DNA from: Blasia pusilla
Lineage: Eukaryota
Assembly: GCA_050084515.1 (NCBI GenBank)
Contig: CM114271.1
Location: 24,800,001 to 24,864,000, forward strand
Length of the DNA stretch: 64,000 nucleotides
Direction of reading: 5' to 3'
Part shown: positions 10,970 through 56,199 of the stretch, in pieces
How positions within the stretch are numbered: position 1 is the stretch's first letter
How the letters are laid out: every line of letters begins with the position of its first letter
The notes under the pieces: generated by a model
Told to the model about the DNA's origin: nothing
Database searches by the model: none
Seen by the model: only the letters and a program-made list of their open reading frames with translations
Translations under genes and position numbers: made by a program

Positions 10970-11213
10970 TGTCATGCGTATACACATTGCTACACAAATG
11001 TTGTTGTTACCAATTATAAACACAGAAACACAAGATACCATACTTGCTTATGACATCTGATCATCGAGATGATCATATAATAAATTATCTCCAATAAATC
11101 AAGATCACTGAAAAGCTCTGAAAAAATCTCCATCTCTTTCTCATGTCAAACCAAACCCACTCTCCTAATGAGATGCTTGGATTATTCATAAGGCAACCTG
11201 GACCATAACTTCG
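10970..11213 (-). mobile_element. Internally deleted fragment of the DNMT-retroelement family (3' tail joined to part of the 5' head)
   Basis: 10970-11060 matches the tail at 24847-24940 (TGTCATGCGTATACACATTGCTACAC). 11130-11213 matches the head repeat (AAACCAAACCCACTCTCCTAATGAG). Confidence 0.7.
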
Positions 11214-20770: not shown

Positions 20771-20774
20771 GGAG

Positions 20775-23700
20775 TTTTTGTTCCTACGTCATGATCAGAG
20801 GTGATTGCAGACGAGGTGGTGGACATGCCCTTGGAGCATGTGCTCGGGCTCTCCACCTCAGATTCTTGGCACGTTGCGACTGCTAGGATGGCAGAGATGC
20901 CTGCTAGACCTGTGATAGAGTGTCCCATGGTGCTATGAGGAGTTGCTTTGCTGGATAACTGAGGAGAGGGATTCCATTTGGTTAGTCCAAGAGGTAGAGT
21001 GTTTTGTCCGCAACGCGTCTTGTTGGATTCTGGAGCGCAACCCTTGATGTTGGGGAAAGTGATATTTATAGGATTGGGCCTGACAAGGGCCGATGTGGAG
21101 CGTTGCCCATTTAGGATACATACATCCTTGGGTGGAGTGAATACGACGCAATTTATCATTTGACTAGAGGTCGTGGTGAGGATTCGATAGGGACATCCAT
21201 CAAATGAGTCTGTGGTGCGAGCCAAGGCGATAGTAACCGATGCCGAGTCCAATGACATCTTGGTTGGAAGACCAGTGTTATACCCGAGTCAACGTCCTAC
21301 AAACCAAGATCGTAGTCAGGTGATGAGTGGCTTAGTTTGTTACCCGTTCAATTCACGGGTGGAGTGATCGAGCAACGACATGGAGAGATGGTGACATTAG
21401 CAACATTCAGCAGTGCCATCACGTAGCCTAGTGATTTGATTGAGGGGCATGTCCATACAGAGGACACACCCGAGCTTGACATTTCTAGGGAGAGGAGTGT
21501 TTTGGTAGCCACATCATTCCGTGGAGGAGAGGTGCCTCTGTGGGGCTCAAGAGAGGAGCTTTGACACTTGGCCAATGAGCATGTGAAGATAGCGTGGAGT
21601 GAGACGTTTCCACCAAAGCATGGCGGGTCAAAGGAATGCAAGGTAGCCGGGAGTGCTACAATAACACCCTTAGATATGATACTAATTGTGTGGCCCATCC
21701 TAGACGAGGATATTTGGGTGTTGGATCTCTTAGGAGGGATCAACACTAGGTTGGCTGATTTTTTGCAAGCAAGAGTGCGCGTGCAGCAGTTCCTTTATGT
21801 GGAGCTTGATGAGGTTGCAAGGCGCGTTTCACTTCGACATGTGGCATAGGTACGCTTCCATTCTCCCGACTTGTTGTTTGCATCTGCCGTACAAGGGTGC
21901 CAGAGTTCCCTACCGAAGGATATTTTGTTGCTGGGGGTGCAAGATTTGGAGCGAATAGGGATCATTGATTTGGTCATTGCGGGTTGGCCATGTCAGGGCC
22001 AATTGAATGCTAGATGAGGTAGCGGGTTGGATGACACTAGATATAGGTTGTTTTGAGAGATGATGAGGATCTTGCGACACTTGCAAGAGCATCAGTCCCG
22101 TTATCCAGCTTAAATCTTGGAGAATGTATCAATTTTGGGCGATTCAAGGTCACAGGTGGTGACAAGTGCACATCAGGTGCATGCATGGATTGACGCAATG
22201 GTGTATTTGGCTGTGGGGAGTGTAGGTTCACGAGCATATTGCCCTATGATGGACCGATTGGTTACCACATGAGGTGTTGCGGAGGGCATATTTGAGAGTG
22301 GAGCACCCCTCCCATTTGTTGGTGGATTCTATTCTGGATCAAGGTCTTCAATCACATACAGTGCGGCACGATGATCGACTGCCGTTAAGTATAGTCAACA
22401 GGCATGTCACGGGCAACCTTTCCTACATTTGTGAGTTTTCCCGCTTCCTATGCATATAAGGAGTCTAATTCTGGCATGGTTTGGGATGATTAGAAAAAAT
22501 GGTTGGTGGAGCCCAACGCCAATGAGCGAGAGTGGGCGATGGGATTTCCCAAAGGAGTGATGGAAATATTGTCATTATTAGAGGCATCACAACGTCATGT
22601 CTCGGGTCAGGCGATGGACATGAACTGCTTGACATGGATTATCAACTTATGAGTATGTAGCTCAGTAGCATCAGATGAGGTTGCAAGAGGTCACAATTGT
22701 TGCATTGGTGAGCCCCATGCCTATCGAGATGGTTGAGGCAATGAATGGGGTCGAGATCCGAGGAGATCGACATGCCAGGGGTGATCGGGAGAGACACCCT
22801 TGGACTTCTTGAGATGTTTTGTAGGTATGACGAAAGATGATAGCTACAACAACGAGCGTACTTCTGGGTACTACACATGGAGGAGATGAGATTTGGCAGT
22901 TATCTATAGGAGAGCAGTCGAGTCATGTTGTTTAAGATGGGGTTGCACCATATCAACCACCAATACCCGCATCAAAGAGTCCTACCGTAGTCACGATGGA
23001 GACTTGGGAGCCATATATGGGCCCTTTGTTGATAGGAGGAGAGCGCGCGGCGCTGGATACATGAGTTCCTTAGGAGTTATAGGAGTTGTTTTGCATTTAG
23101 CATGCATAATTTGGGTATGTTGAAGGGTCCAAGGATCTGCATTGAGTTGTCTAGCGACACGTCGACCTTCCGATAATCCTATGGGTATAGTGATATGGAG
23201 AGGGCTCTGATTCAATGTAGGAGCTAGGACTTTGTTAGAAGAGGACTTTGTTAGAAGTGGAGATGTTGCATTGGAAGTATGCATCTGCTACTGTCATGCC
23301 CGCTAGGAAGGATGTGCATTGGCAACTATACGGAAAGGCGGATGTGTGGAGATTACCGACACATCAATCGGCAAACAGAGTCCGATAGATATGCTATGCC
23401 CACCCCCGAGGAGATCTTTGATGCTATTGGCTATGCAAAGGTGTTATATTGATGACATCATAGTCTAGTTATATGAGCGTCACGGTTGAGGAGCATGAGC
23501 GACATCTAGAGAAGGTGTTCCGACGATTGCAATTACATGGGCTAAAGCTATATCCAAGCAAGTGCAAGTTACTCTATGACTAGATTGAGTACTTGGATCA
23601 CACAATATACCCAAATGGTCTTGGTGTGCAACAGACAAAGGTAAAGGCTATTACACGCATTTCACGCTCTATAGATGTGAGTCGAGTTCGTGCATTCATG

Positions 23701-24296
23701 GAATTGGCGAACTTCTATTGAAAATATGTCAAGGGTTTTAGTTTGAATGCGAAGCCCCTAATCTTGCTCACTAAGGTGGATCACCAATGGCACTAAGGGG
23801 ATGAGCAGGAGAGAGCATTTTAGCTACTCTAGGACAGGTTGACGTCTGTGCCCATAATGAGAAGATTGATCGGGGGACGTCCTTTCTAGTTGCATAAAGA
23901 TTGGAGCACATTGGGGCTTGGAGCGATGCTCACCTAGCATGATGATGAGGGTAGAGAGTTTGTGGTGGCTTACGCTAGTCGCTCGAACAACGTTGCAGAG
24001 GCAAATTATATCTCGTATGAGTGTGAGTGCTTGGCTGTAGTGCATTTTAGGTGTTACTTGTTTGTCCACCCCTTGATCCAGCCACTTAAGTGGTTGATGG
24101 AGTCCAAAAAGCTTATAGGGAAGCTTGCAAGGTGAGCTCTGTTTTTGTAGGAGTATGATTTCTAGGTGGTGCATAGACGTGGGATGCTCAACCAGGATGT
24201 AGGTCGGTTGAGCCGTCACCCATGCTCAAGTCAGTGAGATGCGACTGGAGCTCATTGGCATGGAGAGGGTGATAAGGAGATGGTACCAAGATGGCA
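20775..24296 (+). mobile_element. DNMT-retroelement copy A, 5' part (protease, methyltransferase, internally deleted RT, RNase H); 5'-truncated
   Basis: VLLDSGAQP at about 21016; VLDLLGGINT and DLVIAGWPCQG; CGDYR..DRYAMPTPEEIF joined directly to CYIDD (deletion at about 23443); VVAYASRS. Confidence 0.9.
21715..22640 (+). pseudogene. DNMT3-like C5 cytosine methyltransferase domain of copy A
   Basis: Motif I VLDLLGG, motif IV GWPCQG with the catalytic Cys intact (TGT 21991-21993), motif VI ILEN, motif IX EREWAMGF and motif X VSGQAMD; internal stops present. Confidence 0.88.
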
Positions 24297-24358
24297 CTAC
24301 ATAGCCCAAAATCCCAAATAGGCTCACGATTCTTTGTTAGACCTTGCCATTGTTGTTA

Positions 24359-24844
24359 GGTCTCACACCAAGCTCTCCATGGTGTGAAATCTCTCTCTTG
24401 TTAAACCAAATCCACTCTCCTAATGAGAGGCTTGGGTTACACACACAAGGCAAGGAGGACCATAGCTCCGCCACCTTATGCCAAGAGGTACAACAAAGAG
24501 AGAATGAGCTCTCAAGCTCTCTCTCTTGGAGCTATACCCCCTTCCCTCTCCCAAGCCCTCTCCACGGTGACCTATGCTCACACGTCACCTCCTTGGCTCT
24601 TGACCTGTTGTAGCGGGTCAAGGGCCACTTTCCAAAGTGGAAAGTCAAATATATCAAAGATAAGAATATACCCAAAATAGTAAGTTCCTCAATATGGCTC
24701 CAAATGAGCCGAAACGAAGGGGAAATCTGCTCTCTCACGTTATCTGTGGCCTCAGAAGGTCATCCTTAACCTCCTGAGACTATCCTCAAGTATCTCCAAA
24801 GACGCTCTACTAGATCTCGCCGATCTATCCTAAAAGACATAACA
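24359..24844 (-). repeat. About 490 bp 'head' repeat (LTR-like) abutting the tail of copy B
   Basis: Homologous to 33739-34223 and, inverted, to 35907-36347. Begins TGTTATGTCTTTTAGGATAG on the minus strand. Confidence 0.9.
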
Positions 24845-24846
24845 GT

Positions 24847-27800
24847 TGTCGTGCGCATCCATATTGCTACACAACATACATCGCTGTCATCGAACATACA
24901 CACAAACACGCACAATCCCATGCTAACTCATGGCATCCAACCAACGAGCCAAGAAGTACCAAAATATCTTGAATCGCCCCCCTACTTGGTGGTTAGGTCC
25001 CTCTAACTCCATATAGCCATCTCTCTGTACGTGCCATGACATACATCTCTCGGACGCTAAGAGAAAAAAGGCCGGATGCTCATGTGGCCCCATCGTTAGT
25101 CGTCTTCTTGTCATCCATATCACAAACACAAGTTGGAATCTAGAACTACCTATTCTATGTACATCTGAGACATATCCATCGTCCCCAAGGAACCCTAGTG
25201 AGAGGTGGCGTGAGAGATGCCATATGCCACCCTCTCAAACATCCATCACAGACTAGCATAATGGTTGCAGCACGGGTGGAACCACACAACATTCATAGCA
25301 AGCCTGCAAGAACTACAACTAAGCTCGGATCAATTGTATTGTCAATGTTAGGAAGGTGACATGACACACAATTACGCGTATGGTCCTTCCAAAAGATACC
25401 ATCGCGTCCTTCCAATAAGAGAACACCAGATGGAAAAACCTCACGCACTCTCAAGATAATACGCTACGCAATCATATCCAACGTGGTGGGTACCGTTTGC
25501 TGCAAGTAGACATAGTCTCCTTGATGGAACCTCCGGATAGTCAGCCGATAACCACCTCCCCGAATAGTTGCGTACCTCAACGTATCCGGATATTGCGCAA
25601 TCGCCAAGTTTTTGAACGCCATGTGCATCACTCCGAAACAGCTCAACCCTTTGAGAACATGCTCGCATCCATACATCAGGGTCATCAAGGTTCAACACCT
25701 TACCAACATCTTGATGAATGGCCGTAGGTAAATCCGGCTCTCGGCCATAAAGTAGCAAGTACGGTGAGAAAGACGCTGAGGATGCTTGCTTGCTGAATTT
25801 ATATCCCATCGCCAACCACGGAAACAAGAGGTCCCAATCTCCTAGGTGACCTCTCTGCAAGCCATACTTGCGTAATCCTCTCTTCACCGTGTGCACAACC
25901 CTCTCCGCTTGTCCATCCGCTTCAAGATGATCTTGTGAAGTAGTGCGGTGGTCGGTCATCGCCTCATCACACAAAGTCTAAAACTTCCCACGAAACTCTT
26001 TACCCTGGTCTGTCAACACCTCAACTAGTGTGTCGTAATAACTCAACACTTGATCTAGGAAGGCAAACGCAACTCTCTGACTCGCTTTGTCAGGAAATCA
26101 ACCAACTCTATCCAATTTTAGAAGTGCTCGATCATCACCAATACATAACGACTATGGCGCTTCAGCAAAGGTAAAGGTCCTGAAAAATCCAAACTCCATC
26201 AATAACCGAAACCCATCATTGGGAGTGGATGTAACTGTGGAGTTGGAGCATTGAACGATGCTTGGACCCAATCACACACCATACACCTAGAAACAAATTG
26301 TTGAACATCAGTTTGCATGCCTCGCCACCAGTATTGTATCTGGAGCAAACTATATGTCTGCTTCACTCCAAAATGACCCAACTCCTCGTGGGCATGATGC
26401 ACCAAACGTGCTCTCTATGAAGGATGAGGCACTATACGTTCTCTACCATCCTCCCAAACTCGCAACACATATGTCCCCTCCCACCGGAACCGTCTAGCTC
26501 GTTGTAGGATCCGATCCCGCTCTCTAGCACCCACTATGCTCGCGACGCTGCCAGTACCTAGGTACTACAAGACTACTCCATCGTCGTGAATGTCTCAGCC
26601 ACTTGTCATCTCCTCATCGGGCTCTGGATCTAAGGAGTCTCCATCAGACCTGGCTATTGAAGTCTCAGCAATCTGGCTCTCCATAGCCAACAAGCCCCAG
26701 TAGGCATGCCATCCTCACAGCAACTCCTCATCACTCACTCCATGCCAACGAGTTCTAGTCGCATCTTGCTGACTCGGGCATGGGTTATGGCTCAAACCAT
26801 ATGCATCCTGGTTGAGCATCCTAGATCTATGCACCACCTCAAAATCATACTCTTGCAACAAACGAGCCTACCTCGCAATTTTCCCTATAAGCTTGTCGGA
26901 CTCCATCAACCACTTAAGTGGATGATGATCATTACTGATGGTAAAGACGTTGCCAAATGGATAACACCTGAAATGCATGACAATCCACACTGCATCCAAG
27001 CAATCATCCTCTTACAAGCTATATTTTGCCTCTCGAACATAAGCCACCACGAACTCTCTACCCTCATCGTTATGCTGGGTGAGCACGGCTCCAAGCCCCA
27101 ACATGCTCCAATAAGTATGCAACAAGAAAGGACATCCCCTGATTGGTCTCCTCAATATGGGCACGGACGTCAATCTATCCTTGAGCAGCTGAAATGCTCT
27201 CTCTTGCTCATCCCCCAGTGCCACTCCTGATCCACCTTGGTCAGTAAGGTCAACGGCTTCGCAATCGAACTGAAACCCTTGACGTACTGTCGATAGAAGT
27301 TCGCCAATCCCATGAATGCACAAACTTGACTCACATATGTAGGGCGTGGAATGCGTGAAATAGCCTTTACCTTCGTCAACTGCATACCAAGGCTACCTAT
27401 GTATATTATATGATCCATGTACTCAATCTAGTCGTAGAAGAACTTGCACTTGCCTGGATGTAGCTTCAGCCCATGAAACTGCAATTGTCAAAACACCTCC
27501 TCTAGATGTTGCTCATGCTCCTCAACCATGGCGCTGAAGACTACAATATCATCAATATAACACCTAGAAAAATCTAGACTTACCAAGAGCTTACCCATGA
27601 CCCTCTGAAACTCATCCGAGGTGTTCTTTAACCCAAATGGTAAGAACCGCCACTAGTACAAGAAATCCCTCCCATGAGGATTGATGCCCCAAAATGCGGG
27701 CTTCTTCCTCTAATCTGATAGATAGCTGATGGTATTTGACTCAAAGATCTAAGGAACTAAAGAACTTTGCATGCCCAATAGCATCAAAGATCTCATGAGG

Positions 27801-30800
27801 GGTGGGCATGGCATACCTGTCAGACTTTGTTTGCCGATTGACAGGTCGGTAATTTCCACACATCTGCCTATTTATCCAGTTGGCATGCACATACTTCTTG
27901 GTGGGCATGACAGTGGCAGATGCATACTCTCCATGCAACATCTCCACTAGTCCTACTCCAACCAAGTCCTAGCTTTTTTTCAAAATTAGAGAAAAAGTGG
28001 CTTTTTCTCTGAATTAGAGCCCTCTCCATGTCACTGTACGTGTAGGGTCGTCGGAAGATCGACGTGTTGCTCCACAACTCAATGTGGATCCCTAGACCCT
28101 TCAGCGTACCCAAATCATACATACTTAATGCCAAAAACTCCTATAACTCCTAAGGAACTGACGTATCCGACGCCGCTCTCCTCCTATCAACTTAGGGCCC
28201 ATATCTGCCTCCCAAGTCTCCATCATAACTATGGTAGGACTCTCTGGCGCGGGTGTTGGTGGTTGCTATGGTACAACCCTATTTTAGACAGTAGAACTCG
28301 GATGGCTATAGGGAAGCAGCGAGTTCTGTAGGAACTCCGATCTCCTCCACGTGCAGTACCCTGAACCACACTCGATGTTGTGGCTATCATCTCCCTACGT
28401 ATGTGCAAAATATCGCAAGAAGTCCAAGGATGTCTCTCCCGATCATCCCTAGTGTGTTGATCTCCTTGGGTCTTGCCCCCAGCCATTGCCTCAAACGTCT
28501 CGGTAGGCATGGGGATCACTAACGCAACAACGGTGATCTCTCGCAACCTCAAACAACGTTGCTCATCTACTCCTAAGCTGACAATCCATGTCAAGCAGTT
28601 CAGGTCTATCGCTTGATCCAAGACATGACATCATGATGCATCTGATAGTGATGATACTGCCGTCATTCCCATGGTGAATCCCATCGCTCGCTCTCGCTCA
28701 TCGGTGTTGGGTTCCACCAACCACTGTACCTGGTCATCCCAAACCAAGCCAAATTCGGCCTCTTTGAATGCATAGGAAGCGGGAAAACTCAAAAATGTGG
28801 GAAAGGCTACCCGTGGCATGCCAATCCTGTTGACCATAGTCAACAAAGGTTGATCATCATGTCATTTTGCTTGTGATCGACAACGTGGATCCAAAATAGA
28901 ATCCACCAACAATTCAGACGGACACTCCACTCTTGCATACGCCCTCCGCAAAACCTCATGTGGCACCAAGTTGGTCCACCAAGACGCCGACGATGTGCTT
29001 GTGAATCCACACTCGCGGCATCCAATAACACTAATGGGCCAATCCATGCGTGGATATGATATGCTCTCATCACCAATCGAGACCTCGAATCGTCCAAAAT
29101 TGGCACATTCTCCAAAATGTATGTTGGAGAACGAGACTGATGCTCCTGCAAGTGTTGCAAGATCCGCATCATCTCCCAAAAAAAATTGGATCAAGAGTTA
29201 GCTAACCCGGTGCCTCGTCCAACACTCGAATGGTCCTAATACGGCCAACCAGCAATGACCAAATCTATGGTCCCTACCCACTCCAAGTCATGCACCCCTA
29301 GCAATGAAATGTCCCTTGGTAGGGAACTCTAGTATCCCTCGATGGCGGACGTAGACAACAAGTCGGGAAATCGGAGGCGTAACTTCACCACATGGGGAAG
29401 TAAAGCACGCCTTGCATCATCATCAATCTCAACGTACAGGTACCGCTGCACACGCACTCTTGTCTGCAAAACATCAGCTAATCCAATGTTGATCCCTCCA
29501 AAGAGATCCAACATGAAAATACCTTCCTCTAGGATGCGCCACACAATCGAGATGGTGTCTAAAGGGCTTATAGTAGCACTTCTAGCTACCTCGGGTTTCT
29601 CTGACCCATCATGCTTTGTTGCAAATGCTTCACTCCACGCCATCTGCACGTGCTCAACAGCTAAGCGTTGGAGCTCTTCAATTGAGCCCCACAGCGGCAC
29701 CTCTCCTCGACAAAATGATGTGGCTACTAGAACACTCCTCTCCCTAGAAGTGTCTGGCGCGGGGTGTCTTGTGCATGAACATGACCTTCAATCAAATCAA
29801 AAGGCCACATGATGGCGTTGCTAAATGTTGCTAAAGTCGCCATTTCTCTTGGCCGTCGCTTGATCACTCCACCCGTGAATTGAACGAGTAACAAACTAAG
29901 TTGCCCATCACCGAACTGCCATCTTGGTATGTAGGATGGTGACTCCTCCTAGTAATCTAGGGAAAACAGTGCTCCATCAACCAAGATGTCATAGGGTCAG
30001 ACTTGGCATCGGTCACTATCGCCTTGGCTTGCTCTATAGACTCATCTATAGGATGTCCTGGGAAAATCCTCACCATGACCTTCTGTCGGGTCATAAACTG
30101 TATGGTACTCGCTCCACCTAAGGATGTCTGTATCGTGAATGGATAACGCTTCACATCGGTCCTCGTCAGGCCCAACCCTACAAATGCCGCTTTCCCCAAC
30201 ATCAAGGGTTGCGCTCCTGAATCTTACAAGACAAGCTGCGGACAAAACAATCTACCTCATGGACTCACCAACTGGAAGGTCTCTCCCCGGTTATCCACCA
30301 ACACAACACCTAGAGCAACCATGGCATACTCTATTGCGGGTCTAGCAAGCATCTCGGCCATCCTAGCAGCCGCAATCTGCCATGAATCTGATGTGGACAG
30401 CCCGAGCGTAAGCTCCAAGGGCATGTCCATCACCTCCTTTGCAATCACCTCTAAACGTGATGCAGGAACACCATCTCCATGCTCAAATAGCATAGCGGCC
30501 AGTCAAAAAACCTCGGTAGGGATACCTCCCAACGTCATAACATCGATAGGAGAAAACAAAGGAGCCCGGTACACCATTGTGGCCGCCCCCAATAGCGTAC
30601 TAGACACATACTCCTCCCGAGCATCAACAATAGGAGTCTTTGCGCTCGCTTCTCCCATTGCCTTCCGTGCCTACACACCAACAACATCAACTCTCCGGGA
30701 ACTCTCATCAGGACCCATTGATGGGGTCCTCATCGCCTTGGACAACATGAAAGACTGAGGAAGCCTCATATGTTTTCCGCCTTCCTCTCTTTGTGGATCC

Positions 30801-33800
30801 AACTCTACGGCGGTTCCACATGTAACAACAGTGGTTGTCTCCAATTGGCCAGTCGCGCACATCTAGCTAAAATCCTCCATATCTCCGATTGCTCTATAAG
30901 AAGTCGATGCCACAGATCCGGCATCAGATAACCTCAATGCGATAGCAGAAATCTGCTGTTGTAGCTGCTGTATGTGAGCAGCTATCCCAGCCTCTTGCCC
31001 AACATCTCCCTCGACACGTCTAGGTGGTGGAACTCTACCTCCTCCACCGGCAACTCCACCATCCCCTCCGACAAATCCAGCTCCTCATCCCCCAACAGGA
31101 CCACCTAGTCCATGACCTCTAGGCCCACCCTTATCAACAACTCGCTCTGGTGCCCTCTCTAGCCCTCGGTCTGGACATAACTTGGGATGTAGGCTAAAAC
31201 ACTTGGGGCGTGTATGACCGTACCTCTGGTAGTAGTCACAGTGATAAACTCTTGGTGCAACACCATCTCCTCCTCCATGTTGAGGCACGCGCCCATGAAC
31301 CTGACGTGTGCAATCGTGGTGGTGATGGGCTCCACCACATGCCCAACAAATAATCACACACGGCTGCTGCTGAGTTGCATATGAAGGCGCAGGTCTATGT
31401 GGCACGGCCTCTTGGTATCCTCCTTGAGCTCATGGTGCCACATACCTATCTCAAAATCCAAGTTGCTGCACTGGTGGTGCAGGCAATCGTGATTGCTCTT
31501 GCCTAGAACCCATGGTGGCTACCCTCTCCTCCGCCATGTTCCGCTCAATGTTCTTGACGATCGTAAAAACATCTCTCAATGTAGGTGAGGTGTGCTTAGA
31601 AGCATCCCATCCCAAAATGAAGACGGACGGTGCAACTGCTCCAATGTGAGTTACCCCTCCTAAAACATCACAGGTGGAAGTGGAAGAGGAAGAAGCCTCT
31701 CTTGACTCCTCCTCCTCATCTGCAAACAGCTCAGTCCATGACACATAGTGTGGGTCATAGTAGAGTCTCTATACCTCAATCTCTTGGGCATGTCTGTGGG
31801 AGAACTCATGGTAATCGTCCATGGGCGCCCCCTCTAAATGCTGCAGCATACCGTTCCATGTTGTGAACGAGTTGAACTCTCTAGAGTTCCTAGCCCGTTG
31901 TGAGTCGCACCAACTCCTAAACTCTGTAATGAAGTCGTATAGCTCTATGGTATCTATAGCACCCGAAAATCTACGCGGTCCTCTACCCCAATCGTCCAAC
32001 TTGTACGCCCAACTAGTAGGACCACTCAATGTGTGCGGTAAATCATTAACACACTCCTCTACACTCTCCCCCTTGTGTAAAGACGACACAGAAGGAGGTC
32101 GAGGCGGTCCATCACATGGAGACCTTCGAAACCTCGTGCCACTCCGCATAAATCCTCTGGAGCTACTCTCAGGTCCACCACATGGCCTCTCAAAGTCCCA
32201 AAAGGACGCCGTGATGACCCTTGTGCTATGCTCACGCGATCACTCTTCATCTCATGAGTAATCCCTCAATCACTCAATCCAACATGCAGCACTCAATCTA
32301 CACTCTCTCTCACTGAGACGTGTACTGTGCGACAACAAGCGGCGTGGTGCAGCAAATCGGTTGATCTCTTGTCTCATGAACAACATATATCCTCAATTCT
32401 GGACATCCCGCATAGGTCTAAATCCATACATCAATGATGCTCTCAACATCTGGACGAAACCCAATATCCCAAAAATTGCCCAATACCCGGAATTCCCTCA
32501 CATGTGCAAGGCAAAGGATCAAAATGGGTAACGTAAACAATGTCGATGTTGCTCCTCAGCAATTGCAAATCTTGATCTCAAGTTTCCCAACTTGGTCGTG
32601 AAGAAAAACTCCTCCAAGTAGCACGTCGTACTCCCCTCGTACTGATGATGCTCAAATCTCCTCGATGTGCGGTGCGGGTCCAACGGTACGGTGCGGCACT
32701 GGAAGCACAGAACGATTACACACGGCACGTCACTCAAGAATGGATGTGGAATTCAGCGGAAAATCCTCCTCAACAACAAAATAAAATCTGCTCCCTAGTG
32801 ATGGTGCGACTCCGTAATCGAGACGGTGTGGTGCGGCCGCAAGCCGCACGGCACGGCAATCGGCGGCGAGTTGCGGCTACGGGCATCATGGCACGGTATT
32901 CGATCATCGTCGAGCGGCTACCAGTCACGACATAGCAAAGTAGAAAAAAATATATGACTCCATCAATCCAAAAAAGTTTCCTGTCATCGCTGAGCGACCA
33001 ATCCATACTCGGTTGGTGACGAATTGTTACAATATAATATCGGCATCGAGAAAAAAATTGCAAATCAACCGTCATATTTCTGACGGTGCAAGAATAGTAG
33101 AGGGCACCCGTTGACGTTGTCGGACGGACTCAAGTCGACGGACGGAATGGGATAAATGTCGATGGAAAGACATAGATCCGACTAGCTTGCGTCACGAGAG
33201 TTCGAGTCGAGGCTGAATCGGGAGCCAGAGGCCGAGCGACGGGCGTGGGAGACAGACGCCAAGAGTCACAAAGCCGCAAGTCCAGCACCTAGACCCCCCA
33301 CCAGGAAATCTTCTTCATTCGACCTTCCAAAAAAAATTGACGAGGACTTTCGTGAAACCCAACGTCTCTTCTCTAACAAATTTTTCAGCTGCGCTTCCGC
33401 TCTCATTACTCCCAACAAAAAATTCAATTCAAACGTGTAAAATCAGAAATCAGAGAGGTACATGGTGCTCCCAAGAGCACCGGCATGGGGAAATTTGTTT
33501 CCAAACTCAATTTCTAATAGAAATTGAACAGCCCTTCCACTTGACACTCTCCCACACGAAAAATCGAACAACAAAATAGAAAATGGAGTGGCTCTTGCTC
33601 CCGCAAACACTCCCATGAGCCGCTGAATAGAGAACGCAGTCTCCAACATGCACCAACATCAAGTGACCAACAAGCTCCTAAATTGAAGCTCTCTCACTCC
33701 ATCATTCTATCTTTGTAAGTCAATCGAATCTCTCACAAGGTCTCACACCAAGCTCTCCATGGTGTGCACTCTCTCTCTTTTCAAACCAAACCCGTTCTCC

Positions 33801-34223
33801 TAATGAGAGGTTTGGGTTACATACATAAGGCAAGGAAGACCATAGCTTTTCCGCCTCATGCCCAGAGGTTCAACAAAGAGAGAATGAGCTCTCAAGCTCT
33901 CTCTCTTGGAGGTATATCCCCTTCCCTCTCCCAAGCCCTTTCCACGCTGACCTATGCTCGCTGGTCACCTCCTTGGCTCTTGACCTATTGTAGCAGGTCA
34001 AGGACCGCTTACCAAAGTAGAAAGTCAACTAAACCAAAAATGGTAACTTACCCAAAATAGTAAGTTACTCAATATGGCTCCAAATGAGCCGAAACGAAGG
34101 GGAAACCTGCTCTCTCAAGTTATCCGGGGCCTCAAAAAATCATCCCCGACCTCCTTAGGCTGTCCTCTGTATCTCTGATGGTGCTCTACTAGGTCTCGCC
34201 AATCTATCCTAAAAGACGTGACA
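24847..34223 (-). mobile_element. DNMT-retroelement copy B, full length (about 9.4 kb), decayed, nested in opposite orientation inside copy A
   Basis: Head at 34223-33739, gag with CWACGGAH..C knuckle (about 32150-31100), protease (about 30230), methyltransferase (about 29515-28590), RT (about 28100-27200), RNase H, integrase (HAHEELGH..CMVC), PHD (about 25295-25170), tail ending GCGCACGACA. Confidence 0.92.
28590..29515 (-). pseudogene. DNMT3-like C5 cytosine methyltransferase domain of copy B
   Basis: MLDLFGGINIG, DLVIAGWPY (Cys>Tyr), YILENV, AHRRRL, ERERAMGF and DQAID motifs. Confidence 0.88.
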
Positions 34224-35904
34224 GAGATCGGATCCTACAACAAGCCAAACAGTTTTAGTGGGAGGGGACACATGTGTAGCGAGTTTGGGAGGATGGTAGA
34301 GTTCATGTAGTGCATCATTCTTCGTAGAGAGCTCGTTTGGTGCAGCATGCCCACAAGGAGTTGGGTCAATTTGGAGTGAAGCGGATGTACAACTTGCTCC
34401 AGATATAGTATTGATGGCGAGTCATGCAGACTGGCGTTCAATAGTTTGTTGCTAAGTGCATGGTGTATGATCGAGTTCGGGCATCATTCAATGCTCCAAA
34501 TCGGTAGTTGCATCAATTTATGATCATAGCTCTAGGTTATAGATGGAGTTAAGATTTTGCAAGATCTTTACCTTTGACGGAATGTCATAGTTGTTATGTG
34601 TTGGTGATGGTCGAGCACTTCTCGTAGTGGATAGAGTTGGTTGCATTGCTTGACAAAGAGAGTGAGGGAGTAGCGTATGCCTTCCTAGATTGAATGTTGA
34701 GTCATTATGGCGTACCAACTGAAGTGTTGACTGACCAGGGTACCGAGTTTCGAGAGGAGTTTCAGGCCTTGTGTGATGAGGTGCTAATTGACCATCACAC
34801 CAATTTGCGAGATCATCATGAGGTAGATGGACTAGTGGAGAGGATTGTGCAGATGGTGAAGAGAGTTTTACGTAAGTATGGCTTGCAGAGAGGTCAGCTA
34901 GGAGATTGGGACCTCCAATTGTGGTGGTTGGCGATGGGGTACAGATTCAACAAGTAGGCAGGCATGCATCCTTAGTGTCTTTCTCGCCGTTCTTGGTGCT
35001 TTATGGCCGAGAGTCGGATCTACCTACGGCCATTCATTGAGATGCTCGTAAGGTGTTAAACCTTGATGACCATGATGTATGGATGCGAGCATGTTCTTAG
35101 AGGGCTGAGTTGTTTCAGAGAGTGATGCCTATGGCGTTTGAGAACTTTTCAATTGCACAATATCGGGATATGTTGAGGTATGCGACTATTTGGGGAGGTG
35201 GTTATCGACCTACTATCCAGAGGTTTCATCAAGGAGACTATGTCTACTTCTACTTAACGACATCCACGACATTGGATACGACTACAAGGCGTATTATCTT
35301 GAGAGTGCGTGAGGTTTTTCCATCTGATGTTCTCTTATTGGAGGATCGAAATGGTATGGTTTGGAAGGACCATATGCATAATTGTGCGCCATGTCACCTT
35401 CCTAACATTGACGGTGTAGTTGATCTCAGCTTAGCAGTAGTTTTTGTAGGCTTGCGATGTATGTTATGTGGTTCCGCCCGTGGTGCAACCACTATGCTCG
35501 TATGTGATGGATGTTCAGAAGATGGCCTATAGCATATCTGACGCCACCTCTCACTATGGTTCCTCGGGGACAATGGATGTGCCCTAGATGTACATAAAGT
35601 AGATAGTTATAGATTCTGACTTGTATCTGTGACATGGATGACAAGAAGGCGACTAACAATGGGGCCACAAGAGCACTCGATCTTTTTTCTCTTAGCGTTC
35701 TAGAGATGTAGGTCATGGTTGGTAGGGATCGATGGCTATCTATAGTTAGAGGGACCTAATCACCAACTATGGGGTGATTGGAGATATTTTGGTACTTCTT
35801 GTCTCGATGTTTGGATTCCATGATATAGCATGGGATTGTGTGTGTTTGTGTATATGTTCGGTGAAAACGATGTGTGTTGTATAGCAATGTGTATGCGCAC
35901 GATA
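34224..35904 (+). mobile_element. DNMT-retroelement copy A, 3' part (integrase, PHD finger, tail)
   Basis: Resumes at RDRILQ..WEGTH, about 200 bp downstream of where the 5' part stops when compared with copy C. EVLTDQGTEF, CMLCGS..CDGC..H..CPRC; tail ends GCGCACGATA. Confidence 0.88.
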
Positions 35905-35906
35905 GT

Positions 35907-36631
<725 letters not shown>

Positions 36632-46320: not shown

Positions 46321-49300
46321 CTTCTACTCCAATCGGATCCGAGGAGCGCAGTAGTTCCGAGTCCTTCACTGATCCAGGTGCGCTCAAAACAGCAGATCTT
46401 ATTCTGCGAATGGGTTTCGGACACCGCGGACAACAGGGAGCTAAGGAGGACCAAGGCATGCGGATCACAAGCACATAAAACGGGCCCTGGGAGAAAACTG
46501 AAAGGGCTCCTTCTACCTATCTATCTCCCCTACATCCATTCTGGATGAAACGCGAAACAGAGCCCTTCTCGGGGCAGAGGACAGAAAAACAAACTGTCCA
46601 ACTCTCCTCCCGGACCTCTCCTCTGCTCTGCTCTTGCCTTCCTTCTCTGCTGAAAGCGGGACCTCCTCTCCACCCACGCATGCCACCTGCGTCACGTTCA
46701 GTTGGTGCCTGTCCCAACGTCGTCGCCTATTCTCAAGCACGAGGCTAATCCATCCGTCATCCTGCCATCAGGGGCCTCGGATAGGTTATCGGACGGCTGT
46801 CAGTTTCTGTCCGATAACGGATGACGACGGGAATGGTGGGGTACGCACGGAATAAGTCGGCTCCCTTGGTAAGTCTCGTAGAGAGCTGGACGCCACCGAC
46901 TAATCTATGCTGAGGCCCTTCCGGTACCAGCCACGTAGGATTACCTCCTCGGGATGAACGTGGCAGTACTCAGCTCAATGTCCACGTGTGGACTTGCCCT
47001 CTGCGGGACTCCGCGGGAGTTGCTGTTGAGTCATGAGATGGAGGGAAGACCTTGGCTCCGTACATGAACTTGGCCCGCGTACGCGCCCCTCTGGAGGTTC
47101 GGGTTCAAGAGGTGGCGGGCCCGTCACCCCTCCATCCAACAGTCCACTGCCCATCCGTACCGGCAGCCGCGGAACCCGTGAAGCTGTCCCGATATTCGTT
47201 GCGGCGTCTCCCCGTCTCGGGACGCCGACTCAAGCGACTACCAGTCTCCCCCACACCCAAGCTACCGTGGAGATTTTCCTACAATTCCAGAGCGGAAATA
47301 ATGGAGCTACATGCGTCGATTTCACAGTTGCCACGCCCTGGTTGGCTGAACGCCATGTTACAATTCTCCTGGGCCTAAGCCCTCGGTGGCGGCTAAGGAC
47401 GTCTTTGCTGCGTGCCTGTTCCCTCGTTCGCGTCGAGGCATCTTTGGTTGTTCCAACAAGCGAGACTAAACTAAAACGTAAGGTTTTCATGACTCCTTGC
47501 CACCCATTCCTTTAGTATTTAAAAGTTGACCAAAAAAATCAAGTGACTTTCAGTATGATCAAGTTCTCTAGCTTTTCAAGTTCTTAAAAAACCATGCTCA
47601 TGAATGGTATGTTTTAAACCATGATTAAAAGAAATCCTTTGTAATTTTTTTGAACGAAATTCTAAGCGTTTCCGCTTCTTATTAAAATTAGAATTATTAA
47701 TTCATTTCTGTTTCCCCGTAAAAAAATATTACAATTCTATGAAAGGTTCTTACCCAATATCTAAAACCCATAATGAAAAATCTTCATAGCCACATGAATT
47801 TGTTCATATTTGAATGATTGTAAGATTTCAAAGTTCGTAGCATGTCTTATTATCGAGTGAAATTCTACTCCCAATCACGTCAAACTTTGTTATTTCCTTT
47901 CCGCTAACCTTAATGCGACAATAAAATTTTACTTCAATAAATTTCAATGTAGCGAGAAGATGAGACGACCTCACAAGATCCAGATATTTATTAACAAATG
48001 GTACGCTTTTGTGTTATTGTTATCCATCTTCAAGATTTCACACTAATGGGGAGGAATTTATTGGGCCCAGTGCTTTAATTTTTGAGATAAAGTATTAACT
48101 TTTCGTTCAATGGGGCCGAATACCCAAAAGACATATAATTGACATCGGCCGATACTCCAACATTGACTTTGTCGAGCATTTCCTTACGTTTGTGAGATAT
48201 TACTTCCTACTCTTCCTTCTTTGCTTGCGATTTATGTTTAGTAGGCTTCTATTATTTCTTGACATTTTTATTCCATCTTTCAACCCCATCTCATACCGAG
48301 CCAAATTAGGCTATTCTGTTTTAATCTTTTATCCTTCCATACTTTCCTTTCTCTTAGCGTGGGATAGGATTAACTTTACTTAACGTTAGTTTATTTATTT
48401 TCAATTTGAAGACGTCGATAAGTTTCCTACCAATCCATTTGGGAAAAAGTTAAAGAAACACATGAAGATCACTTCTTGATCACATCACTCAATGTTCTAA
48501 GCCATTAATTCGAGTTTTAATGAAGCCCACGATTAAAGAGACAAGGCTGGATTTAAACCACTTTAAATGCTCTTATAGCCACTTAAACTGGCCAATTTTA
48601 AATGAAACAAAGTTAGTTTTAGGGCATGGTTAAGTAATAATTAATCACTAGTAAGGTGCATGTGAGATGCCTGGATAAAAAAGATTTTTTTTATTATGAA
48701 AATAATTAAAAAATTTATTTCATGAAATATATTTTTATACACAATGTTTCAATTGTATTATTTTTTCATTGGAATGTGTATCATTATAGATCATAATATG
48801 AATTGAACTCTTTTATCCTACTCTAGATAACGCCACATATGACTTGCCATGAAAAAGGCATGCATGGATAAATATTTTCCAATCTTTCGTAAAGTTTGAT
48901 CTTGTGACTTATTGATAGTGATGGAAAAAGCTGGACGGATAGGGAATTAGGATCTACATAAATCAAAAGGCAACCCTGACTCATAAGAAATCAATGGGAT
49001 ATGAGGAATGAAAAGTCAATCTCCAATGTTCTTCCTTGTAATAATTTCAGCATCAATATTATGTTGCATGAATCTACGAATGATTAACCGAGTGTCATTC
49101 ACTTGTCCTTTTGCCCCATTCATGTTCCGTAAAACCACAATTGGTGCATCAATCTTCAAACACAACCGATGTGGAACCAGTCTAGAAGGTAAGCATATAT
49201 TCAAAAACTCTGTCACATCTGAGTAGCCAATAGGCCGAGATCTATCGTGGATAGGGCGTAGGAGCCAGCGGACTATCTTGAGTGTAACTTTATCCCACGG

Positions 49301-50519
49301 TGTCGGATGAGGTTGAGGATAGGTCCATTGTGTCAAGAACGTCGTTTCTGACAACTTTCATGTTGAGGTCTTTTACATCCGGATGACTTGTTGACCAGGT
49401 CACCCGCCCCTGGTAACTTGGGCGCGCACGTTACCAAGGGGAGGGCTATTTTTAGGGGAAGAGCCTTTTGGCTCTTCCCAACCCTATATAAGAGAGGAAG
49501 ATGGCTTCCATAAGCAATCTTTCTCATGTTGGGCCGTTGGAGCACCTCCCTTGTATGTGTGTGAGATAGGACTAGGGTGCTAGCGTCCGGATTCCTTGAT
49601 AGCACAGGGTGGACGAGGCTCGACATGCCGATGTAGATTGAGGAGTGGAGTTTTAGACCGGGTGTGCCATTTTTACTACTCTTTATTTTTTACATGAGAA
49701 AGATGTTAGGGGGCTGGTGGGAACTCATTGTTTGCAGGTAGGCAAGCGAGTTGCCTTGGTCGGGAGCCCCTGGAGACGCGTGTGTTGCGGGTGTTTGGAA
49801 GGGCATGGGCGGAAGCGCTGTCCGTTTTTCTCAGATTTTGCTGGTATGGATTGACGCGGTACAGCAGCCGAGTGTAGTGTGCGGTGGAGCGTCGGGTGTA
49901 CGCGAGTGAGGATGTCGAGAGAGAGAAGAAAAGAGAGTTAGGGCTTGCAGCCGCCGGGGGCGTTGACGGGCGTTTAGGTCGGCGGGCGCGGACAGACGGC
50001 GCGGACGGCGGGCGGCGAGGGCGCGCCCCCCTGTGTGTGATTGAGAGTGCTATGTATCGAGTAGTAGCTGGTGCTAGGTGGGTGCAGTGATGGTGACGAG
50101 TGTAGATTCTTTTCATGTGTAGCATGTTGGTGGATTACGGCGGTTGCCGAGTAGGGGTTGCGTGTATGACCCAAGAGAGTGCCACTAGGTTAGGTGAATC
50201 AGTTGGGAGGCTCATGGTGAGCGTGAGTGTTGAGCGTGCGTGAGGCCGGGTATGTCATCACGGGATTGATGTTAGCATAGGTGAGCTAGTGAGGCGTGTG
50301 GGAGACTCTCGGTGAGTCTAAGTGCTTGAGCGGGTGAGACAGGGTTTGTCATCACGGCGTTCTTCCAAGGTTCGGAAAATGGGGTAGTGCGAGCAGTAGT
50401 AGTGGTGTGACACGGAGTGGAGTGAGATACCGAGGGGTTACCTGTGAGGAGCTACCTTGACATCCATCCGTGGCTGGATAGTCATCATCGACACCGGTCG
50501 GTGGCGAGATCGCTGCATG

Positions 50520-51800
50520 AGACGAGAGTATTTGGCAGGAGATGGACGACATGGGCCATCGAGGCATGCGTCGTTTCTCGGGTGCAGTGGGCACCATCGA
50601 CTTAGATGATTTTATCTAGGAGTTTGACACATGGTGCGACTTCCAGGAGATACGGACCCCGACACGGGTCAACCCTTTCATGGCATGGAAGGGGTTGTTC
50701 CAGTACTTGGAGGGTCCTCCAATGGATGACTACATGGAGTTTCCATCACTACATTCAATAGAGATTGATGCCTGGAGGATGTATTAGGCTCCAGGGTATG
50801 TGTCCACTAATGGTCGCGAGGCATATGATGGGATTGTGAGAAGAGAGAGACCCACACCATAAGCCCGGAGACTAGATGGAGAGGAGGGCAGTGAGACAGG
50901 CGATGTGGCAGAGACCTCTGGTGGTAGAGGGCCACCCAACTTCAGCCCCACAGTGGAGTTCTTCCGACAGTTAGGGAAGAGTTACCAGGGCTTACGCACC
51001 GACAAGCTGAAGAGTCTATAGGATTTTCAGCGACGATCGGGTGAGAGTCTGAGAGAGGCATTCACAAGCATGAGGAGGCTGATCATTGCTACGTTTGGAG
51101 GATCGAGGCGCGATCACCCGATTGGTGACGGGTTCGGACCGAAAACTACGGAGGAGAGTTTGAGATGCGGTGCTGAATCACAAAGCGAAGCCCACATTGA
51201 AGGTAGTCTTTGAGTTGTCAAAGCGTATTGAGCTCAACATGAGTGAGGAGCAGGTAGTGACCGCTGGATTTTCTCGGGAGTCGACGGGTCCACGAGCGAC
51301 GGTGACCCCATAGGTGCCACAGCAAGCACCAGTATCACGGGAGCGGGCCAGTGTGCCTAGAGAGCAAGGCGGGTACCGTGAGCCTATGAGGCAACGACCC
51401 GTACCTACATATGTTGCCCAGCAGGGACCGATGTGGTCTTGTTGGACGTGTGGAGGGGCCCATAGGCATAGAGACTGCCCACAGCATGGGAGAGGACCAC
51501 CAGTGCCTCCAATTGCTCAGGAGCCACAGAGGATGGTCCCACCACAACACCAGTGTGACCATTGCCATAGATATGGTCACACTAGGGATAGATGTTTTGA
51601 CCTTCGTCGAGGGGCACGTCCAAAGGTAGGCCGAGGGCCTTGGGGCGGTCGTCCTAGAGGAGGTCAGGGAGTTCATCCTGGACGTGGTGGTAGAGGACCA
51701 CCACCAACTAGAGGAGATGGAGCAGGAGCACCAGAGCCGCCACTTCTCTCATGCATCGATCAGTTGGAGCAGAGGATTGTTGCCATGACGATGATGCGCT
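50520..51800 (+). pseudogene. gag of copy C with two zinc knuckles and an RGG-rich stretch
   Basis: RRFSGAVGTIDLDDF..WKGLFQYLEGPPMDDY; CWTCGGAHRHRDC and CDHCHRYGHTRDRC. Confidence 0.8.
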
Positions 51801-52429
51801 TTAGGAAGGCACGGAGCTGCGAGCAGCTAGTGTGACTCCAACTTCTACCTCTTACCCTGACCCGAGTAAGGATCTTGCCAGTATAGGATTTATGTGTAGT
51901 ACAGCCCAGGTTGAGGCATCTGCAGTGGTGACTCGGGGTGCTGCGAGAGGCACCGAGCCATGGAGAGGTGGAGTTGAGATTGACCCACCAGAGGGGACCG
52001 ATGGGCGGCAAGCCAGGGTTCCACAGTCGTTCACATTGTCGGAGGCACTACACACACCATCGATGGTGCCTCAACGACCAACGGTGCCTACAGTTCAGGC
52101 ACCTACGTCGACGTCACGAGGAGTTGGAGTGACAACTCCTATGCCGGCTCGAGTGGAGTCAATGTTGACCATAGTGTTGGAGGTGGCCACCAGAGTGAGT
52201 CAGACTCCGCTATTTTCCGCCATAGATTTGGCGACGTTGGGGGTTGGACCAGCTGAGGTGTTCCCGTTGGCCGCCACGTTGTGTGAGCGTGGAGAGATGA
52301 CTGCTTCTTGTTCAGAGGTAGTTGAGGAGGTGGTGGACTTGCCATCAGAGCCGGTGCTTGGGACGTTCCCCACAGAGTCATGGCATGCGGCGGCGGCGAA
52401 GTTGGTAGATATGCCAGCTCGACCGGCCA

Positions 52430-52900
52430 TAGAACGAGTAGTGGTGACACCTGGAGTAGTGTTACTGGATAATCGAGCTGGAGTATTTCGCTTGGTTAGT
52501 CCGACGGGGACTATATACCACCCGCAGCGCGTCCTACTTGATTCGGGAGCGCAACCCTTGATGTTAGGGAAGACGGCGTGTTTACCATTGGGATTACGGA
52601 AGGCCGACATTGAGCCTTGTCCCTTCCAGATCTGAGACCTCAATTGGGGCGTATCACCCACTCAAGATATGACTCGACAGAGATTGTTGTTAGAGTCCGG
52701 CCGAGTATCGACGGATAGTGCTATGGTGCGCACACATGCGATTACGACACTGGCCGTAAGTGCGATGTGTTGGTGGGGAGTACAGTGTTATATCCCCTAG
52801 GATTCATCCTTGACTTCTGGGAGGAGACCGTTGCTAATCGGCCAAGATGGCCATCAGGTGACGGCCAGATGAGTCAGTTACCCATGCAGTTTGCGGGACG
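52430..52900 (+). pseudogene. Retropepsin-like aspartic protease of copy C
   Basis: VLLDSGAQP active-site motif and downstream DVLVGS..L. Confidence 0.85.
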
Positions 52901-53249
52901 AGGTGGTCGATCACGAGGCGAGTCTCTGACCACGTTGGCAGCTTTCACAGGTAGTGTTAGCTGGCCAGGAGAGTTGTTGGAGGGGAACGCACATGCGGAG
53001 GATGTCCCAGTAGCGGATAGTCCCACGGAGAGACAGGCCATGGCGGGTGTCTCTTCCCATGTTGGAAAGGCCTCTTCACCATTGTGGGGTACGACTCGAG
53101 AGCTACAGAGGAGTGTCGACGACCTCGTGAGGCAGGCGTGGAGTCATGTTTTATCCCAAAGCAGCAAGAGTCACGTGGCGATCGGGCTCTTGGAGTGGAG
53201 ACGTTGACCCCATTGGATACCACACCTGTTGTGTGGCAGTGCCCAGAGG

Positions 53250-54190
53250 AGGGTGTTAGGGTGTTAGATCTCTTCGGAGGGATTAGCACTGGATTGGCTG
53301 CACTATTGCAGGCGGGCATACGGGTGCATCAGTACCTTTATGTGGAGAGAGATAAGACCGCGCGGCGAGTATCATTACGTCACGTGGCAAGATTGGTCCA
53401 GAGGTATCCTAAGTTGTTGCCGGTATCTGCAGTACGGGGATATCAGCATACGCTACCCACCGACATCTCTTTGGTGGGGGCGCAGGATCTGGATAGAGTT
53501 GGCACCATTCATTTGGTGATTGCTGGATGGCCATATCAGGGTCATTCATCAGCTGGCCGAGGATTTGGATTGCAGGATCCGAGGTCAGGGATGTTTTGGG
53601 AGATGCTGCAAGTAGTATGACACTTGTAGGAGAGTCAGATATGTTCTCCAGTGATATATTTTGGAGAACGTGCCATTGTTGGGAGACACTCGTGCACGTG
53701 TGATGACGAGTGTACATCAGGTGAGGTCCTGGTTGGGACCTGCTATGTTGTTAGATGCAGCGAGAGTTTGGTCACGTGCCCATCGTCCACGACTATGGTG
53801 GACTAACTTGATACCATCAGAGGTATTGAGTCGAGCATACGATGGAGTCCAGAGAGCACCACATCTCACAGTGGATGCTATTTTGGGCTCAGGGTGTCGA
53901 TCTCAGGTGGTGACACGAGATGATAGACCACCGTTGGCCATGGCCAATAGGGTGGGGGAGTTGAGGGCAGCCTTACCTACGTTGGTAAGCTTCCCAACAT
54001 CCCATGCCTTTCGTCAGGGAGGGCCAGGCATGATTTGGGATGAGGTGACCGGAGCATTGGAGGAGCCTACAGCATATGAGCGCGAGCCCGCCATGGGGTT
54101 CACTACCGGTACTACGGCGGTGCCAGGGATGACTGAGGCATCCCGGAGACAGGTGTTGGGGCAGGCAATGGACCTCAACTGTCTCATATG
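53250..54190 (+). pseudogene. DNMT3-like C5 cytosine methyltransferase domain of copy C
   Basis: VRVLDLFGGISTG (I), YLYVE (II), LVIAGWPYQG (IV, Cys>Tyr), GLQDPRSGMF, ILENV (VI), AHRPRLWWTN (VIII), ERE.AMGF (IX), RRQVLGQAM (X). Confidence 0.92.
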
Positions 54191-55940: not shown

Positions 55941-56199
55941 CCCATATCCAAGTCAGAGAGACGACACAGGAGCTAGATGGCACGGAGAGAGTAATGAGGA
56001 GATGGTGCCCGGTTGGCATGCATCTGCCTATCTTTGTTGGCTGACTATGGTAGGTCAGCCACAGGTGATGACTCCAGTGGTGGAGTTGGATGATGAGTCT
56101 TTGGATCCCGAGTTTAGTGAGGAGGCGAAAGGTGGTCGTGATATCCATGATGACGTGGAGGTTGTGGAGTTCTTGCGCACTGGCGTCATTGCGAGTACA

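Follow-up and report, generated by a model that had tools for sequence, protein, structure and literature searches.

A Ty3/gypsy retrotransposon family in Blasia pusilla with a probable permuted LTR and a probable internal integrase site

In the analyzed window, a stretch of 64,000 nucleotides of the Blasia pusilla genome (24,800,001-24,864,000 of contig CM114271.1), we identified three copies (A, B and C) of a Ty3/gypsy retrotransposon with the layout A1-body-B1-nn-A2-B2, in which nn is a 2-bp spacer. We propose that the repeats of this element represent a permuted LTR, which is cut internally by the integrase. The probability of this reading is estimated at roughly 0.87. In its fuller form, a self-priming Ty3/gypsy element would have moved its attachment (att) site into the LTR and would commit early to the left LTR; this version is less secure and is still favoured.

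Layout, termini and copy forms

The A repeats have a size of about 480-515 bp and the B repeats of about 130-140 bp (about 128 bp in copy B). In most copies, the downstream A repeat is followed by a second B repeat (B2), which ends with CA and is followed by unique flanking sequence. The junction of B1 and A2 had been recognized in an earlier note on this DNA, in which B2, present at about 36516-36631 in copy A and in most other copies, was overlooked. Copy B is located in reverse orientation inside copy A, and a deletion has removed its 3' end together with about 190 bp of copy A. The features of the window are as follows.

10970..11210, minus: related copy, of which the end of A, the A|B joint and B ending with CA remain
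20771..24297, plus: copy A, left arm; 5'-truncated body, split by copy B
24298..24357, no strand: filler of about 60 bp, replacing the deleted end of copy B and about 190 bp of the host copy A
24358..24844, minus: copy B, A2, about 30 bp short of its end; B2 and the 3' target duplication are absent
24836..24856, minus: att palindrome of copy B; end of B1 (..GACA), spacer AC and start of A2 (TGT..)
24847..24974, minus: copy B, B1, about 128 bp, ending with CA
24975..24984, minus: copy B, polypurine-like tract TAGGGGGGCG, directly 5' of B1
24985..33700, minus: copy B, body; leader and decayed gag-PR-DNMT-RT-RH-INT-PHD, assigned by similarity to copy C and L025 and by domains
33701..33716, minus: copy B, putative primer-binding site adjoining A1; complementary with mismatches to 33873-33888
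33717..34223, minus: copy B, A1, the 5' repeat, starting with TG; putative self-primer sequence at 33873-33888
34224..35776, plus: copy A, right arm with the integrase-PHD region; its polypurine-like tract (35768-35776) is decayed
35777..35904, plus: copy A, B1
35895..35915, plus: att palindrome of copy A, spacer GT
35907..36349, plus: copy A, A2; a (GT)n tract up to about 36511 stands in place of its end and of the A|B joint
36516..36631, plus: copy A, B2, 3' end of the element
49207..49210, plus: copy C, 5' target duplication ACTC
49211..49691, plus: copy C, A1; TATATAA at 49485-49491, putative self-primer at 49516-49529
49692..49705, plus: copy C, putative primer-binding site, complementary to 49516-49529
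51314..57580, plus: copy C, broken gag-pol; Cys/His knuckles, LLDSG, DNMT, RT, RNase H, DDE integrase and PHD
57648..57657, plus: copy C, polypurine-like tract
57658..57798, plus: copy C, single B ending with CA, with a 3-nt GAC duplication; A-body-B form
57799..57802, plus: copy C, 3' target duplication ACTC

The reading frames of copy C and its sister copies contain, in this order, a C5 DNA methylase, reverse transcriptase (RT), RNase H, integrase zinc finger and core, and a PHD; RVT_1, RT_RNaseH, Integrase_H2C2 and rve were matched in the same order. The methylase belongs to PF00145 (E 2e-9), with DNMT3A/3B as best matches among solved structures, and the best solved match of the RT is Ty3 (E 1e-70). 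The gag match is weak (E 0.006) and the protease was assigned by motif alone, namely LLDSG of copy C, which we take to be protease-like; the Cys/His knuckles were presumptively named in the same way. No tyrosine recombinase family was matched by the 46 frames of at least 100 aa from two full copies. All examined copies carry stops, and C-family copies are about 93% identical to copy C. Among the matches listed, homologues of the methylase region were found in Marchantia (up to 62% over 95% of the query), Sphagnum and Closterium, with Marchantia proteins as the closest named ones, and homologues of the integrase-PHD region in volvocine and other chlorophytes (47-52%). Neither set of listed matches contained one labelled Klebsormidium.

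The junction is a conserved palindrome. On the minus strand of copy B, GCGCACGACA (24856-24847) is followed by AC (24846-24845) and TGTTATGTC (24844-24836), and copy A reads GCGCACGATA (35895-35904), GT (35905-35906) and TGTCACGTC (35907-35915), as described in the earlier note. Its description of the palindrome as att-like also fits, the two halves being the termini of the element. In the whole assembly (390 Mb, 26 contigs), the genome-wide count suggested there was carried out with the pattern GCACGACA-N{0,8}-TGTCAC, which gave 1,491 exact matches compared to 7 for a reversed control. Among the first 100 matches, inspected by eye, 96 have a spacer of 2 bp, like the two copies described in the note, and the remaining four have spacers of 0, 1, 3 and 7 bp; the spacer is hence fixed and not variable among copies. 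The 2-bp spacers are GT (30), AC (28), GC (23), AT (8), AG (3) and TT, GG, CA and AA (1 each). A GC spacer makes the palindrome perfect, and AC, GT and AT are its C-to-T products. These four spacers account for 89 of the 100 matches, and GC, already assumed as ancestor in the note and present in many copies, is thus the likely ancestral spacer as judged by sequence. Independent decay of the two GC positions was rejected, as AC and GT are in excess (chi2 9.0, P 0.003).

Related elements were found in a metagenome scan (80 loci, 60-84% identity). Among the 65 loci whose match stayed within the contig, 27 carry the palindrome downstream of the PHD, the distance between the two being consistent, with the spacers GC (12), AC (11), GT (2) and AT (2), the spacer length being fixed by the pattern. 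A second B is located downstream in 20 of these 27 loci, several of which are possibly the same locus in different assemblies. Four relatives reach A1; one of them is 5'-truncated, and an exact 4-bp duplication was detected in 3/3 testable ones.

For the analysis of the outer ends, 29 B-family and 28 C-family hits were extended upstream; hits in which not both ends are visible are 5'-truncated, interrupted or of the short form. A 4-bp target duplication is located outside A1 and B2. In the B family it is exact in 7 of 8 copies and has one mismatch in the other, and among the 14 full C-family copies it is exact in 11, has one mismatch in 2 and is absent in 1. In total, TG...CA termini with an exact duplication were found in 18 of 22 full copies. 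No strong target preference was apparent among 27 duplications. The earlier note had considered that the downstream A repeats might end at a fixed CA followed by a duplication matching the 5' flank, as in canonical LTRs; the duplication was instead found beyond B2.

Of the hits, 9 of 39 in the B family and 10 of 29 in the C family are single-repeat A-body-B forms; genome-wide, such forms account for at most 354 of 1,286 cases in the B family, a count which includes pattern decay. Copies like copy C, which had been described as LTR-less, do therefore exist, and where both ends are visible an exact duplication is present in 7 of 9, including copy C itself. Solo A|B units were detected at 5 of 30 joints, with two exact duplications, two with one mismatch and one unread. 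Two complete identical LTRs were not found at the ends of inserted copies, all of which are A...B-nn-A|B or A...B.

The paired repeats of a copy resemble each other more than those of different copies. Paired A repeats differ by 0.050 compared to 0.068 across copies, which answers the comparison of paired and unrelated A repeats proposed earlier, and paired B repeats by 0.021 compared to 0.029 (permutation P <1e-4 and 14 copies in both cases), B1 having been selected by the query, which biases the B comparison. The greater likeness within copies holds throughout A and B and also for variants close to the outer ends. Among the A pairs of the B family, six differ by 0.025-0.090 at a cross mean of 0.106; the A pair of copy B in the window differs by 0.138 and lies above this mean.

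Primer site, G tract and A|B joint

Sequences which would bound a reverse-transcribed repeat were found at both sides of B-nn-A. In the B and C families, TAGGGGGGCG or a decayed version of it is located directly 5' of B1, and a G tract precedes B also in a third family (D) and in the metagenome relatives. In all three families, the sequence just after A1 is complementary to a stretch inside A (11-16 nt). The complementarity comprises 14 nt in the C family, where it starts about 31 nt past TATATAA and was found at 18 of 21 5' ends, and 16 nt in the B family, where it was found at 5 of 7 5' ends and is mismatched in copy B. For family D, the primer site was predicted from its A sequence, a prediction that was not logged beforehand. 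The first 100 A-end hits of this family consist of 53 A|B joints and 47 body-side hits, and 46 of the latter begin with the predicted ACTCAAAGAAC with at most 2 differences (by eye). The pairing is kept at the same place by three different sequences and would match the self-priming of Tf1. The folding energy of the leader did not single out the primer stem (z -1.38, 16 of 200 shuffles equally good), and a shuffle control for stems, which is uninformative owing to the G-U pairs allowed in it, gave stems of up to 17 nt.

Judged by these sequence features, the primer site and the G tract appear to delimit B-nn-A as a repeat which holds the palindrome about 130 bp inside. With B-nn-A taken as the LTR, the element has its primer site and polypurine tract (PPT) where Ty3/gypsy elements have them. 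Two suggestions of the earlier note do not agree with this. An att-like sequence does not replace the PPT, as a polypurine-like tract is located about 130 bp upstream of the junction. Likewise, the junction is not a concatemer or tandem-insertion joint and would lie inside an ordinary reverse-transcription LTR; the end-to-end joint would be A2|B2.

At the A|B joint, A2 ends where the primer site starts and B2 begins where the G tract ends. Most joints are precise. Of 83 joints, 14 are longer than the mode; the figure is 2 of 123 at the two parent boundaries (P 8e-5) and 0 of 323 at internal control intervals. The joint sample derives partly from an exact-joint pattern, which understates the variation. 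The extra bases are ACA or A, corresponding to the start of the primer site, or G or GGGGGCG, corresponding to the last bases of the G tract. The C family has 571 joints, and in the first 100 of these, extras of ACA (3), ACA-like (1), A (1) and G (3) were detected. Two of the three ACA joints are neighbours and possibly go back to one event. The joints of L139 and L319 contain a partial G tract and filler, and that of the relative L260 about 19 bp of filler. Comparable primer and tract remnants are known from retroviral 2-LTR junctions. The remnants of primer site and G tract thus indicate, as far as the sequence can tell, that the joint is formed anew from cDNA ends and is not copied from RNA.

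Proposed mechanism and alternative explanations

In the proposed replication cycle, the RNA would start about 31 nt downstream of the TATA box of A1 and stop within A2. Its 5' end would pair just past A1 and prime the minus strand in a Tf1-like manner, and the plus strand would begin after the G tract before B; both sites are present in the sequence. Reverse transcription would yield a linear B-nn-A-body-B-nn-A, with B-nn-A as the true LTR. The DDE integrase would engage GACA-nn-TGTC of the left LTR, probably since this one is double-stranded first, and would nick each strand after CA, so that the 2-bp spacer gives two CA-3' ends with 2-nt 5' overhangs. Insertion of these CA-3' ends would produce the 4-bp duplication, consistent with the observed termini and duplications. 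The original cDNA ends would be end-joined before or after strand transfer to form A-body-B-nn-A|B, for which the imprecise joints speak. Single-LTR intermediates or annealing of B with B may lead to A-body-B, and later recombination of A1 with A2 to solo A|B. Both of these forms can also stem from later recombination.

Transcription was analyzed in three raw runs from a single study carrying the same species label, together with one contig set, in which reads stem from many copies and a DNA control is absent. Reads along the family are mostly of one strand, and 16 reads of this strand cross the palindrome. Reads across the A|B joint are of both strands (9 and 12), so transcription may run through the joint. 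No RNA start or end was mapped by the three-run read set.

The use of the two LTRs appears to be asymmetric. In the B family, a B located after a G tract is followed by A in 932 of 1,286 cases, whereas a B located after a joint is followed by A in 13 of 1,369. Twelve of these 13 cases are chance matches in the flank and one is an extra repeat unit; the 6 candidates of the C family consist of 2 chance matches and 4 extra repeat units. The mirror form flank-A|B-nn-A-body(-B) was represented by 0 of 19 candidates in the B- and C-family searches, which covered windows of 550-700 bp past the junction. From a closed 2-LTR circle with its two identical palindromes, the mirror form would be expected in half of the products. 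Its absence suggests that the integrase uses the left palindrome almost exclusively, and the integrase probably commits to the left LTR early. The simplest reason for the choice would be the order of reverse transcription, in which double-stranded DNA forms at the left LTR long before it does at the right one. The circle suggested in the earlier note, if free and opened at random, is contradicted by the lack of mirror products (0/19 candidates).

A corrected version of this idea, in which the integrase depends on covalently closed 1-LTR and 2-LTR circles as substrates and opens them at the palindrome, has the same permuted-LTR anatomy and is considered unlikely. The A|B joints resemble 2-LTR circle junctions, and an opened 1-LTR circle gives A-body-B with the exact duplication observed in 7/9 copies. 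The share of A-body-B is similar in the older and the younger family and does not rise with age (9/39 vs 10/29, P 0.41, in small samples chosen by query similarity). In addition, the accessible text of PMC1180852 describes that foamy virus integrase cuts palindromic LTR-LTR circle junctions. However, mirror copies of the type flank-A|B-nn-A-body-B would be expected about equally often, but none of the 19 candidates, drawn from some 1,369 joints of the B family and from the search in the C family, is of this type. Closed circles would need one of the sites to be marked, e.g., by strand-specific methylation or prebound integrase.

Much less probable are split repeats in the style of PAT and Ngaro, where the RNA would run from A1 through B1-nn-A2 into B2, the ends would be rebuilt from the internal junction and the joint would be inherited. 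The layout is indeed the A1-B1-A2-B2 of PAT, Ngaro and VIPER as given in the available parts of PMC6681497 and PMC7192593, the joints are mostly precise and some RNA reads cross them. This explanation does not account for a primer site and a G tract located exactly at the two boundaries which form the joint in three families, for the bases of both within joints, or for a variant at the fifth base of B which is common to B1 and B2 of the same copies; moreover, a tyrosine recombinase was not matched by the 46 frames and the duplications are of 4 bp. The data on primer site, G tract and joint therefore demote inherited repeats of this kind. We give hardly any credence to an ordinary A...A LTR element with an att-like sequence in place of the PPT, or to targeted tandem insertion at element ends. 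A1 and A2 are direct repeats starting with TG and are more similar within a copy, as such an element would have them, but a polypurine-like tract is present before B1, and A2 is followed by B2 and not by body or flank in most copies. Both versions were rejected on the target duplication, which lies beyond B2 and not beyond A2, and on the element ends, which are not followed by A repeats (13/1,369, of which 1 is real). The permuted LTR with early commitment to the left LTR is hence preferred here.

Significance and comparison with known systems

In classical LTR elements, the integrase acts on the ends which reverse transcription has produced, and LTR circles mostly count as by-products. The thousands of genomic copies of this family point to a cut inside the LTR, with the original ends of the cDNA being ligated and retained within the copy. 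The family would thereby be a natural system for the disputed productive use of internal palindromes or circles by integrase, and it suggests a route from an ordinary LTR to split direct repeats. As a speculative extension, which we regard as doubtful, a green-lineage clade reaching from liverworts and mosses to charophytes, perhaps also chlorophytes, may have uncoupled attachment from the RT ends and normally integrate 1-LTR and 2-LTR circles, and split repeats including those of PAT and Ngaro may be permuted LTRs. If this is true, the clade turns classic dead-end circle products into productive ones. LTR finders which require TG..CA and a duplication at the ends of two LTRs, like the criteria in the accessible text of PMC6317226, would miss the family or set its boundaries wrongly, and solo-LTR and age estimates would be off under canonical LTR criteria.

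In the literature search, which was thin on subscription journals, Repbase reports and theses, no published description of permuted LTRs in Gypsy elements was found besides a figure legend on Klebsormidium. The accessible text of PMC6317226 does not contain the words PHD, methyltransferase or Marchantia. An active PHD-bearing Gypsy element of Chlamydomonas is described in the available part of PMC9940879, streptophyte Gypsy-DNMT3 elements are named in passing in that of bioRxiv 10.64898/2026.05.21.726589, and the part available of bioRxiv 10.1101/363937 holds nothing relevant.

Split repeats were defined in tyrosine-recombinase elements, according to the accessible sections of PMC6681497 and PMC7192593. 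The Blasia element shares with PAT, Ngaro and VIPER (order DIRS) the order A1-body-B1-A2-B2, a junction mirroring both ends and solo A2-B2 units (SIRE), as far as these sections describe them. In contrast to these elements, it has a DDE integrase and a 4-bp duplication, and its 46 frames of at least 100 aa gave no tyrosine recombinase match; it does not belong to PAT/Ngaro. Integrase cleavage of palindromic circle junctions was reported for foamy virus (PMC1180852) and HIV-1 (PMC1905944). In the passages available, this case resembles the cut presumed here in the internal palindrome and the processed ends. The viral palindrome, however, consists of ligated RT ends, whereas here it would be a fixed site of its own, located about 130 bp within the LTR, and the inserted copy would keep the ligated RT ends in its interior.

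For Tf1, the accessible text of PMC7175516 describes self-priming, in which 11 nt at the RNA 5' end pair with a site adjoining the LTR. The Blasia element may resemble the self-priming Ty3/gypsy elements Tf1, sushi and Tcn1 in this respect, as 11-16 nt after A1 are complementary to the putative RNA 5' end, and among solved structures its RT matches Ty3 best. In Tf1, sushi and Tcn1 the RT-defined LTR ends are the termini, whereas the termini of the Blasia element would be located inside the LTR. Circle junctions of the IS30 and IS3 families consist of abutted ends with a fixed spacer of 2-3 bp and are opened by a DDE enzyme. These are DNA transposons which build the junction anew, whereas here the junction would be carried in the RNA.

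The closest known element by description is KnitGypsy-Dnmt3 of Klebsormidium nitens (de Mendoza et al., 2018, PMC5890265). According to the accessible text and the legend of Fig. 4c, it has Gypsy domains, a Dnmt3-like domain in Pol and DIRS-type repeats; the order A-coding-B-A-B is spelled out for SymbioDIRS in Fig. 1e of the same paper. The Blasia element likewise combines a Dnmt3-like DNMT within Pol, Gypsy domains and split repeats, a comparison made on the published description. It differs from the Klebsormidium account by its thousands of copies and its occurrence in Blasia pusilla. The accessible text of PMC5890265 gives no primer site, PPT, target duplication, single-repeat form or mechanism for KnitGypsy-Dnmt3, and the permuted LTR would explain a repeat layout which, as far as this text goes, was published once without a mechanism. 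By description, the family is best filed beside KnitGypsy-Dnmt3.

Variant repeat ends and joints

At about 1% of the A|B joints, the boundaries between A2 and B2, an additional repeat unit was found downstream, giving the order B-nn-A|B-nn-A|B, where nn is the 2-bp spacer (loci L226, L313, L314, L316, L318 and L320). In some of these extra units A is shortened. They may be products of unequal recombination or of multi-LTR intermediates. At four other loci (L011, L018, L066 and L080), leader sequence of 130-380 bp or more is appended to A2 beyond the primer site. In L011, B2 begins precisely at its first base after the extended A2, and the 4-bp target duplication is intact. Such A2 copies may stem from cDNA that ended past the primer site, or from a dimer that was later resolved. 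On the contig that holds the window, a unit repeated in tandem (L113-L115, G000:C1:7.356-7.361 Mb; each about 1,036 bp) combines a B-family joint with a D-family A1 and the primer site of that A1.

The genome-wide pattern of spacer states is skewed: among the matches listed, AC and GT are commoner, and GC and AT rarer, than independent deamination predicts (P 0.003). Subfamily structure is perhaps responsible.

Decayed copies and other features of the window

Rearranged parts of the copies and further features are located as follows (window coordinates).

547-1245, DUF4218 frame
10970-11210, minus strand, A|B end left as a remnant by a related subfamily
14900-15898, minus strand, fragments similar to copy C
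24298-24357, filler of 60 bp where a deletion cost copy B its B2 and copy A about 190 bp
36346-36511, (GT)n tract, about 165 bp long, in place of the A2 end and joint of copy A
39314-39836, 41/56-bp tandem array
44167-45609, minus strand, 480-aa frame with no Pfam match

The remnant A|B end adjoins another, different repeat (11212-12473), which resembles 5510-6577.

PHD-bearing elements in green algae

Among the matches listed, integrase-PHD homologues at 47-52% were found in Volvox, Pleodorina, Tetrabaena and Haematococcus. An active Gypsy element carrying a PHD is reported from Chlamydomonas (PMC9940879).
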